DNA of 64,000 bases from a virus (taxonomy: Duplodnaviria > Caudoviricetes). The stretch spans positions 5,506 through 69,505 of IMG/VR virus record IMGVR_UViG_3300011335_000709. The stretch is one strand, 5' to 3'. A program made the position numbers and the translations under genes. The notes beneath the pieces are model-generated. The model was not told the DNA's origin. It did not search any database and saw nothing but the letters and a program-made list of their open reading frames with translations. This document shows, in pieces, positions 33,729 through 35,776 of the stretch; within the stretch, counting starts at the first letter, position 1, and every line of letters begins with the position of its first letter.

Positions 33729-33755
33729 AAGAGTTTTCTTTCTTGAAAGGGTATG

Positions 33756-33782
33756 ATCCCCCGGGGGATAAACCCCGGGGGA
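33756..33782. other. GC hairpin with self-palindromic arms (possible terminator/attenuator after the head decoration gene)
   Basis: tcccccgggggataaaccccggggga; no clear U tract. Confidence 0.4.
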
Positions 33783-33793
33783 CCAATTGATTG

Positions 33794-34096
33794 TTAAGCG
33801 TTCAGATTTTGCAGCAGGGTCAAAATAGTGTTCAGCTTTGTTGCCAAAGTCTGAAAATTATTATTGATCGTTGTCTGCGTTGGAGTAGCGGTAACATCAA
33901 CAAGTGTCGATGTTCCGCTAGCCGTTCCGGAAGCAGCCGTCAGTTTGCTGAGCGTGGGGGCATCTCCACCCGAACCAGCCACAACGGTTGCTACGGTACT
34001 TCCTGAAGTGCCCCATTCGGGTCCGTTATTCAACACACCACGAACTTGGGCCGCCAAGACATTGTCTTGGGAACGCGTTTGAAGGGGAAAGCTCAT
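33794..34096 (-). CDS. head decoration/head fibre protein (100 aa)
   Basis: Immediately after the MCP; C-terminal TINNNFQTLATKLNTIL trimerisation-like helix. Confidence 0.6.
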   Translation of the reverse strand: MSFPLQTRSQDNVLAAQVRGVLNNGPEWGTSGSTVATVVAGSGGDAPTLSKLTAASGTASGTSTLVDVTATPTQTTINNNFQTLATKLNTILTLLQNLNA

Positions 34097-34117: not shown

Positions 34118-35521
34118 TTAGCTAACATAGTCAAGGCTGATGGTAGGACGTGTGTGCATTACGACGTAGCCGTACTGCGGGAACACGGGCCGAGCACCAC
34201 TCGCACAAACTCCGCGAAAATATCCGACATTACCGTCCGGATTATTTTGGCGATCCAAGATGTTAACCCATTTGAACTCACCACGGTAGTTCTGAGGATT
34301 GAATGCCATCTTGTTGTTAGTGCTGATGGGAGACGGAACCACAGAGCGGAATACATCTTGATGGAAGATGTAGCTGATCTCGTAGGACGCGGTCTCGTAG
34401 GCAGGGTTGATGTTGTACGCCGTACCCTTGGTCGTGGTTTCCTTACGGAAAGGATACACACGGAACAAGTAGGCAGGGCTCGTACCAGCCACGGCAAAGC
34501 GCGGAGGATACGGATCGATGGAGTGGTAGAAACCACCGTAAGAACGCTCAATACCGAGAGGCGTGAGCAATTCATTCGGCTTGGCATACCGGTAATCCTG
34601 GCGAATGTCGGCATTCAACCGGATCAGGTTTTCGCTGGTTTCGGCACCGCAGATCAACATGAACACCGGAGCGCCGTTTTCACGGCCCATGGCGTTAGTT
34701 CCCGCGCCGTCGCGGATAAGTTTCATGTAGAGCCGCTTGAGGATGCCCTGGGTCAACTGACTCTGAGGGAGCGCAGTGGATGTGAGGGTACCGCCACCTA
34801 CTGCCGACACTGAGCCATTCACAACAGCGTTATAAACGGCTTTAGCGTCACCAGTGGTTGTAGTGCTAGCGGTTGGGTTATTGATGGCACCAACGCCGGG
34901 ATAAACGAGGTTATTTCCCTCGATGACCACCGAGCGGGTGTATAGATTCCGGTAGCGATCTTGCCAAACCAAGGAGGTCGACTCAGTGAGGACATCCATG
35001 ATGTTGGAGAGCTGCTCTTTACGTTTAACGGCAAAGCGCAAATCTTCCAAGGAGATATCGGGGGAATCAACCGAGGCCCATTCCAGCGAATACTGACGGA
35101 GCTTTTGTCCGAAAGTAACGCCAGTAAGAGCTACGGGCAACGCATTACCAGAGGAAGAAGCCGAATCAACCGGATCTCCAAATGATGCGAGAGTGCTGGT
35201 AACCTGGGTATAAGGATTGAAGCCCTGATAGTCCTGGGTAACCTGATTTGAACCGAGTGTTCGCCATCCCTGTCCTGCATCTTGTCTGATATCGTTTACT
35301 GAATAGCCAATTGCGGTATCACCAGCAGTGGCCAAAGCACGGGAGGGGTAGAAACGTTCGAAAGTGACCGAGCTGATCACATCGCCCATTTCCTCGGGGA
35401 ACTGTTCCTGCTTGGTCAGTTTGAGCCAAGCAGAGGTATCGATCGTCCGGCGATAAATCTCCGGTCCGATACGACCCGCTTCTTTAACCAGCAACTGCTG
35501 GATATTGTAAGTCGTAGACAT
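34118..35521 (-). CDS. major capsid protein (467 aa)
   Basis: Follows portal and scaffold; strongly biased codon usage; size typical of HK97-fold podovirus coats. Confidence 0.8.
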   Translation of the reverse strand: MSTTYNIQQLLVKEAGRIGPEIYRRTIDTSAWLKLTKQEQFPEEMGDVISSVTFERFYPSRALATAGDTAIGYSVNDIRQDAGQGWRTLGSNQVTQDYQGFNPYTQVTSTLASFGDPVDSASSSGNALPVALTGVTFGQKLRQYSLEWASVDSPDISLEDLRFAVKRKEQLSNIMDVLTESTSLVWQDRYRNLYTRSVVIEGNNLVYPGVGAINNPTASTTTTGDAKAVYNAVVNGSVSAVGGGTLTSTALPQSQLTQGILKRLYMKLIRDGAGTNAMGRENGAPVFMLICGAETSENLIRLNADIRQDYRYAKPNELLTPLGIERSYGGFYHSIDPYPPRFAVAGTSPAYLFRVYPFRKETTTKGTAYNINPAYETASYEISYIFHQDVFRSVVPSPISTNNKMAFNPQNYRGEFKWVNILDRQNNPDGNVGYFRGVCASGARPVFPQYGYVVMHTRPTISLDYVS

Positions 35522-35529
35522 AGTAGTTA

Positions 35530-35741
35530 TTTTCCTTTCAACCTTCCCCTTACTCGCGCAAAGGGTAGGTTATGATTTGTGATAAGTATGCCAGCCCCTA
35601 TCGAGGCTATCCATTCTCATCACGACTCAAAACTTTTCCCTGGCGGCATCCCAGAGCTTTTAATGCCCGAATTCTGCTAGACCGTCTCAATCTTTATAGG
35701 TCTTGTTCGGCAAGGATCTCAATCTTTATACCTGTACCGAA
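35530..35741 (-). ncRNA. structured 5' leader of the major capsid gene (candidate cis-regulatory RNA)
   Basis: Two tandem hairpins with loops UAUAAAGAUUGAGAU/C, plus further stems including aacct-a-ccctt...aaggg-a-aggtt next to the RBS. Confidence 0.55.
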
Positions 35742-35748
35742 CTAGTTA

Positions 35749-35776
35749 AAAGTATCAACCGGGTGGAACGTGTCAA
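35749..35776 (-). promoter_or_regulatory. promoter TTGACA-N16-TACTTT for the capsid transcript
   Basis: Directly after the scaffold stop and upstream of the structured leader. Confidence 0.55.

Follow-up and report, generated by a model that had tools for sequence, protein, structure and literature searches.

The window analysed here, a stretch of 64,000 nucleotides, holds most of a single 69.5-kb genome of an uncultured aquatic phage. On its minus strand a gap of 269 nt runs from the stop of a 401-aa ORF (35791) to the ATG of a 467-aa capsid ORF (35521), and this is the sole noncoding gap of more than about 65 nt across the 36-kb structural module. It contains an untranslated leader of about 225-230 nt in which the features follow each other, on the minus strand, in the order promoter, hairpin 1, hairpin 2, core, long hairpin, short hairpin, ribosome-binding site and capsid gene (Table 1).

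Table 1. Features of the capsid transcription unit, in the order of the minus strand (RNA motifs are written as transcribed).
Feature	Positions	Strand	Description or basis
Sigma-70-like promoter	35749-35776	-	read directly; activity and start site predicted
Hairpin 1	35705-35742	-	11 bp with C bulge; loop UAUAAAGAUUGAGAU (35730-35716)
Hairpin 2	35679-35703	-	5 bp; loop UAUAAAGAUUGAGAC (35698-35684)
Invariant core	35638-35669	-	CGGGCA (35669-35664); linker UUAAAAG (35663-35657); 6-bp stem; loop GAUGCCG
Long hairpin	35569-35633	-	inner covarying part 35579-35623; tip AGCCUC-GAUA-GGGGCU
Short hairpin	35546-35565	-	CCCUUUGC-GCGA-GUAAGGGG, just upstream of the ribosome-binding site
Shine-Dalgarno GAAAGGA and AUG	35519-35539	-	GAAAGGA 35539-35533; AUG 35521-35519
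Major capsid protein gene, 467 aa	34118-35521	-	AlphaFold fold and Foldseek
Small second gene, 100 aa, Ser/Thr/Gly-rich	33794-34096	-	ORF list
3' hairpin	33754-33785	-	13 bp, G+C-rich; dG about -29 kcal/mol

The 467-aa protein has no match in Pfam, PHROGs or PDB sequence profiles. Its AlphaFold model reached a pLDDT of 78 when built on a 50-sequence alignment drawn from the 686 relatives found by profile search, and 41 with a 15-sequence alignment. In Foldseek, the highest-ranking matches of the model (E about 1e-11) were to capsid proteins from phages N4, Moo19, DEV and B2, and the look-alikes of the protein in the ESM Atlas belong to the Phage_capsid_3 and N4-gp56 capsid families. Since these two lines of evidence agree, the gene is, judging from its predicted fold, that of an HK97-type major capsid protein, closest to N4's, as the original prediction had supposed for the gene downstream of the leader.

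Upstream of the capsid gene lie a terminase gene (weak PHROG match) and ORFs of 769, 97 and 401 aa. Their sizes parallel the series gp59-gp58-gp57-gp56 of N4, the portal-sized, 97-aa and 401-aa ORFs standing for gp59, gp58 and gp57, and BLASTP comparisons of the portal-sized and 401-aa proteins with N4 gp59 and gp57 gave no significant match. Farther downstream, the late gene run (5079-41357, minus strand) includes a 4177-aa ORF, in a position like that of the virion RNA polymerase gene in N4. In N4 only 11 nt separate gp57 from the capsid gene, against 269 nt in the present phage, which makes the long structured leader, relative to N4, a peculiarity of the present uncultured lineage.

The promoter proposed upstream of the hairpins is correct in position and sequence: it consists of a -35 hexamer TTGACA (35776-35771), a 16-nt spacer that includes TG (35757-35756) followed by one base, and a -10 hexamer TACTTT (35754-35749). 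All close relatives (clade A, described below) keep it, spacer included. The spacer CGTTCCACCCGGTTGA (35755-35770, minus strand) is nearly invariant throughout clade A, and since this conservation exceeds the needs of a sigma-70 promoter the spacer may also be bound, as DNA, by a protein. The first base of hairpin 1 lies 6-7 nt past the -10 hexamer, where transcription is expected to start, which puts this hairpin within 0-2 nt of the predicted transcript 5' end. The leader of the sister clade B likewise opens with a paired segment. Within the leader, from promoter to ribosome-binding site, no terminator-like site is listed on the minus strand.

In both clades an ORF of 70-105 aa follows the capsid gene after about 20 nt. 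Its 100-aa product in the present phage is rich in Ser, Thr, Gly and Ala, with a heptad-like C-terminal end (...NFQTLATKLNTILTLLQNLNA), and it resembles a head fibre or decoration protein more closely than a regulator that binds RNA. Right after this small gene, in loci of both clades (L001-L022), stands a hairpin whose stem shows compensatory changes and whose 7-nt loop, UUCUAUC or UUCAAUC, is conserved; we take this loop to resemble the T-loop of tRNA. This 3' hairpin, which had been overlooked, ends the unit, and it is likely to be a terminator or a 3' stabiliser. The arrangement is best explained by a dedicated transcription unit made of promoter, leader, capsid gene, small gene and 3' hairpin, with a transcript start that is predicted. 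For LUZ7, an N4-like phage, both start sites and termination sites of transcription have been mapped in the region of the capsid and gp57-like genes (PMC9163698); the capsid fold of the present phage is nearest to that of N4.

Relatives of the capsid locus

A search with the capsid protein returned 32 viral contigs. In all 20 contigs with a capsid identity of at least 71%, the promoter, the core, the long hairpin and the ribosome-binding site are present, as are both loops, spaced about 32 nt from each other. Scanning for the exact core pattern gave matches in 45 viral contigs and in 59 metagenome stretches, four of the latter being coding false positives (about 55 true matches). The element is thus found in about 100 related metagenomic loci, in a single copy per contig; wherever a locus extends far enough downstream, the capsid start follows the element. 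Conservation of the structure in relatives had been set beforehand as a test of the original prediction, and these loci, with their compensatory changes, provide it. Among clade A sequences (the near-identical L001 left out) the leader is more conserved than its surroundings, with 80-94% identity vs 70-77% for the capsid gene and 65-75% for the gene upstream.

The sister clade B comprises 34 loci with capsid proteins about 44% identical. Promoter (GGTATTGACA plus TACGAT or TATTTT), core and UGAAAGGA are retained, a long hairpin stands at the corresponding position, and a different 5' domain (UUAGCUGUUAGGAAUUGGCAUGGGCGUAUCCGCGG...CCGCGUUAGCU) replaces the twin hairpins. The exact core has nine matches in 185,579 species genomes, all of them in protein-coding sequence and several reading the ABC-type motif GQQKLLDAAM; they include no prophage and give no clue to the host. 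Likewise, neither the capsid protein nor the leader matched any of the 50,697 deposited GenBank phage records searched.

The fold of the leader RNA

Several observations indicate that the leader is under selection as RNA. The predicted fold of the capsid leader beats 200 of 200 shuffled sequences (z = -4.0). In an alignment of 18 clade A sequences, 17 of the 62 predicted pairs show compensatory changes; in 15 sequences of clade B the count is 11 of 30, three of them in the core stem, 98.2% of cells pair, and none of 500 shuffles match the covariation. Compensatory changes affect every major helix of the leader family. Non-canonical pairs are also telling, since G-U far outnumber A-C (191 vs 8 in clade A, 81 vs 3 in clade B) and since the alignment folds better in the sense than in the antisense direction (-61.8 vs -31.3 kcal/mol): the molecule that folds is therefore the capsid-strand transcript. 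Comparison of the relatives thus shows a coding-strand RNA with five predicted helical elements that selection has kept, and the claim of a conserved RNA structure before the capsid gene holds, with shuffles never matching the compensatory changes.

We found no sign that this structure belongs to a described family. Across the whole window no model of Rfam 15 matched at gathering score; within the leader, at E up to 10, the only match was a CRISPR repeat model on the wrong strand (E 1.9); and five clade B loci had no matches either. A match to Rfam had been chosen beforehand as a check on novelty, and the leader accordingly lies outside the known Rfam families.

The starting point of this work was the claim that two tandem hairpins present a shared loop on differing stems. 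The coordinates check, and in the relatives the loops are indeed conserved on covarying stems. Hairpin 1 pairs 35741-35706 (7 bp, a C bulge, 3 bp), and a G-C pair extends it to 35742-35705. In the window, as in the entire 69.5-kb genome, the 14-mer TATAAAGATTGAGA of the loops has exactly two occurrences, and both are in the leader. Compensatory changes are present in 4 of the 11 pairs of hairpin 1 (97% of cells paired) and, among the 25 distinct clade A sequences of the A3 set, in two pairs of hairpin 2 (100% of cells paired). For the 5' domain as a whole (25 distinct sequences), 98.8% of cells are paired vs 36-47% when the partner is slid by 1-3 columns, and 0 of 500 shuffles match the observed covariation.

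The contrast between stems and loops becomes sharper in a larger set of 37 distinct 5' domains from related loci, every one of which keeps both loops at identical spacing. Hairpin 1 has 25 stem versions in this set, nearly all of them still pairing, vs four loop variants. Variation in loop 1 is limited to positions 9 and 15 (U/C), and in loop 2 to positions 7 and 13 (G/A) and 15 (U/C), apart from one sequence with C at position 2; the consensus of the 15-nt loop is UAUAAAGAYUGAGAY. Hairpin 2 occurs in six stem versions in the larger set, including AAACC/GGTTT and CGACC/GGTCG. Because all 37 domains keep loops and spacing while the 25 stem versions nearly all pair, the conservation of twin loops on changing stems is far beyond chance. 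Yet the twin hairpins are a clade-specific module, and since the sister clade is without them they are not essential to whatever function the core conserves. The converse situation, a twin-loop pattern without core, did not occur in the scan of related loci.

The core, which had been overlooked, is the oldest and most constrained part of the leader, because clade B keeps its loop and GGGCA while the twin hairpins are absent. The block reads CGGGCAUUAAAAG-CUCUGG-GAUGCCG-CCAGGG, in which the stem CUCUGG/CCAGGG (35656-35651 with 35643-35638) closes the 7-nt loop GAUGCCG (35650-35644). The 25 distinct clade A sequences that make up the A3 set show no difference in this block. Two further clade A loci carry one substitution each, both in the A-rich linker, which tolerates single changes. 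In clade B three of the six stem pairs change on both sides, with loop GAUGCCG and GGGCA fixed; the stem versions are CUCUGG/CCAGGG, CUCCGG/CCGGGG, CUUCGG/CCGAGG and CUCUGC/GCAGGG. A scan in which the core loop was left free revealed no family member with a different loop.

This bears on another stem originally proposed, GGCAU...AUGCC. Both sequences are present, but they do not form a plain stem: AUGCC lies within the 7-nt loop of the covariation-supported CUCUGG/CCAGGG hairpin, so the pairing could only be a pseudoknot. Its two sides in the core, GGCA and UGCC, never vary, even in the free-loop scan. A compact GGCA/UGCC pseudoknot is doubtful on steric grounds, because a connector of 1 nt would have to cross a 4-bp helix. 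Masking of the start codon by GGGCAU was also considered and rejected, being predicted only in the minority of sequences with UCU or CCU as second codon (AUGUCU/AUGCCU). Neither does the core read well as a leader peptide (AUG CCG CCA GGG AAA, MPPGK): it has no Shine-Dalgarno and no synonymous variation, and the position of the stop varies, for which reasons the constraint must act on the RNA. We note in passing that the core at 35635-35649 (minus strand) reads MPPGK and that four small late genes (starts 5066, 4771, 3870 and 3325, minus strand) begin with MPLGK.

Towards the capsid gene, the long hairpin has many compensatory pairs, e.g. A-U, G-C and C-G at columns 149-175 and U-A and C-G at columns 150-174, and a counterpart of it, with five compensatory pairs, occupies the corresponding position in clade B. 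The AGCCUC-GAUA-GGGGCU stem of the original prediction survives as the tip of this longer, strongly covarying hairpin. The short hairpin is predicted by single-sequence and alignment folds alike; the CCCUU...AAGGG pairing near the ribosome-binding site is kept in relatives, but its changes are one-sided only (G-C to G-U), a weaker sign of selection for pairing. Downstream of it, UGAAAGGA at the Shine-Dalgarno is conserved in clades A and B, and in clade A the predicted probability that the Shine-Dalgarno is unpaired is mostly 0.6-0.8.

Possible functions of the leader

What would a phage gain from such a leader? The reading that we favour, tentatively, is that of a 5' stabiliser combined with binding sites for a putative factor tuning the stability or the translation of the capsid mRNA. 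The 5'-terminal hairpin 1 and the 3' hairpin would protect the capsid message from exonucleolytic and 5'-end-dependent decay. The two 15-nt loops would offer a two-site docking platform to a factor acting in trans, for which an RNA-binding protein with two domains or in dimeric form is the likeliest candidate, and the invariant hairpin core would be a second recognition site. Together, loops and core would set the lifetime and the translation level of the capsid message, the ribosome-binding site itself being left open. A bivalent protein operator, as first suggested for the twin loops, fits the comparative data. Since the core is invariant across capsid proteins only 44% identical, its partner is probably highly conserved (host machinery or a metabolite); a phage protein that evolves fast fits less well.

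Phages are known to use translational operators, among them the MS2 coat-protein hairpin, the pseudoknot leader of T4 gene 32 and the T4 RegA sites. The present leader resembles these in having unpaired conserved nucleotides on a helix in a phage leader, and a possible pseudoknot upstream of an open ribosome-binding site. It differs in its position, about 110-220 nt upstream of the start codon and not over it, and it has no sequence similarity to them. The autoregulation of the P22 scaffold, which had been put forward as a parallel, offers an analogy only, the leader preceding the capsid gene and not the scaffold gene. Other partners for the loops fare poorly. An interaction between the two loops, also suggested originally, is unlikely, since they share no self-complementary stretch beyond UAUA, and kissing of the twin hairpins was rejected on this count. 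Complements of the loops elsewhere in the 69.5-kb phage genome are chance-level matches with 2-3 mismatches, and pairing with the capsid mRNA was discarded as well, the best sites being weak (-7 to -11 kcal/mol) and differing in position between phages.

The simplest alternative is that the leader is passive, its hairpins only stabilising the message and its open A/U-rich stretches only aiding the loading of ribosomes, with no factor to read it. The predicted 5'-terminal helix in both clades, the very stable hairpin that ends the unit, the predicted openness of the Shine-Dalgarno and the lack of any alternative pairing resembling an expression platform all agree with this. So do the unrelated long leaders of more distant clades (see below), as if length and structure outweighed sequence. 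The leaders of E. coli ompA and T7 gene 10 are precedents; they are short, at about 60-130 nt, and the sequence of their loops need not be fixed. The likeness extends to a stem-loop near the 5' end (here predicted), an open A/U-rich stretch, a good Shine-Dalgarno, an abundant protein product and a dedicated promoter directly before the capsid gene. Yet the present leader, of about 225 nt, carries two same 15-nt loops and an invariant core, and has no sequence or Rfam relationship to those leaders. Above all, stems drift freely and loops do not: 15 fixed loop nucleotides, twice, together with GGGCA and GAUGCCG invariant in about 100 loci, are far more than a plain stabiliser would need. We thus regard a purely passive leader as unlikely, though it deserves to be kept in mind.

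A different possibility is that the core acts as a riboswitch-like sensor or as a dock for a host machine, binding a metabolite, the ribosome or RNA polymerase and thereby gating the production of capsid. Like an aptamer, the core has invariant unpaired nucleotides around a covarying stem, it is conserved across capsid proteins only 44% identical, and its GGCA is complementary to UGCC in the loop. Small pseudoknot aptamers are of similar size and layout. Tandem hairpins, too, have a counterpart among riboswitches: in the guanidine-II riboswitch (mini-ykkC) they carry ACGR tetraloops that pair loop to loop. The twin hairpins share with it the tandem arrangement, the same loop on differing, covarying stems and the location in a 5' leader; they differ in having loops of 15 nt, with neither ACGR nor mutual complementarity, and in matching no Rfam model. 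Against a riboswitch-like role of the core stand the lack of a match to any Rfam riboswitch, of a terminator and of a sequestered Shine-Dalgarno. The sequence past the core differs between clades, with no shared switching helix visible, the pseudoknot is sterically doubtful (1 nt across a 4-bp helix), and 185,579 species genomes contain no exact copy of the core bar coding false positives. Such gating is therefore quite improbable, and we give a similarly small chance to the core being either a new aptamer or the place where a universally conserved host machine, such as the ribosome or RNA polymerase, docks. Were this so, the leader would be a phage riboregulator linking capsid production to the state of the host, and the clade-specific 5' domains, twin loops or their alternative, would be interchangeable accessory modules.

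The position of the hairpins also brings to mind processive antitermination. Put- or nut-like hairpins would in this case modify the polymerase, either themselves or by way of a loop-bound phage protein, so that it passes the hairpin behind the small gene and continues into the 28-kb late gene run. The put RNA of HK022 consists of two promoter-proximal stem-loops that render RNA polymerase resistant to terminators; the twin hairpins, immediately downstream of a strong promoter, fit this in position. A very stable hairpin does separate the unit from the late genes downstream. In lambda-type nut sites, boxA precedes a boxB hairpin with a 5-nt GNRA-like loop, and a linear conserved element followed by an invariant-loop hairpin recalls this order. 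But the loops of the leader have 15 nt and 7 nt and are no GNRA-like pentaloop, the GCUCU of the core belongs to a covarying stem and not to a fixed boxA, and clade B is without the twin hairpins. Moreover, the structure reaches the ribosome-binding site, which indicates action at the level of the mRNA. We find antitermination highly unlikely.

Lower still is the probability that the leader is an independent small RNA, or gives rise to a processed 5' fragment, with a role in trans or in assembly. A promoter of its own, a strong structure and the display of two loops speak for this, but no terminator-like site is listed on the minus strand between core and ribosome-binding site, or indeed anywhere from the promoter on, which makes the small noncoding RNA of the original prediction unlikely; nor does the phage genome hold a complementary target. 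The packaging RNA of phi29 forms intermolecular rings through two mutually complementary loops, whereas the two loops here are identical and cannot pair hand in hand. In type III antitoxin RNAs (ToxI-like), tandem repeats of about 34-45 nt precede a toxin endoribonuclease gene; in the leader only a loop segment of 15-17 nt is repeated, and the gene downstream is that of the capsid protein. Finally, a DNA operator, with direct repeats 32 bp apart at which a transcription factor would bind to block or activate the promoter, would account for exact 14-bp repeats three helical turns apart just past a promoter whose spacer is unusually conserved, but it is scarcely credible given that the repeats have no dyad symmetry and that their flanking arms covary to pair, with many G-U, as makes sense only in minus-strand RNA.

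Structured mRNA leaders are a known means of controlling gene expression, and the capsid leader is a strongly supported structured RNA, apparently an undescribed family within this known class. Its layout is unusual: the stems drift beneath two large identical loops, and the core remains the same even between phages whose capsid proteins have diverged to 44% identity. The leader also precedes the gene for the protein that the phage needs in the largest amount. Under the favoured reading, if loops and core bind a factor or a ligand, they would constitute a new control point for capsid production in widespread aquatic N4-like phages. From IMG/VR, the contig collection to which the present phage also belongs, Fremin et al. 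(2023; PMC10690425) describe thousands of RNA candidates with covariation support, 8,495 of them unnamed; five candidates typically lie upstream of a major capsid protein family, and these five precede PHA00201-type capsid genes, unlike the present leader.

Capsid clades at 32-43% identity (L120-L146) have unrelated noncoding stretches of about 170-320 nt before the capsid gene, each with its own TTGAC-type promoter. In one of them, clade C (L120, L122, L125, L126, L129 and L142), compensatory changes occur in 21 of 55 predicted pairs. These distant clades thus bear long leaders at the position of the present one that are unrelated to it, so that the whole phage group shares the trait of a long structured capsid leader, filled by different RNAs. 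This suggests a general, so far unstudied, requirement of the group. The leaders of the distant clades are themselves further candidate RNA families.
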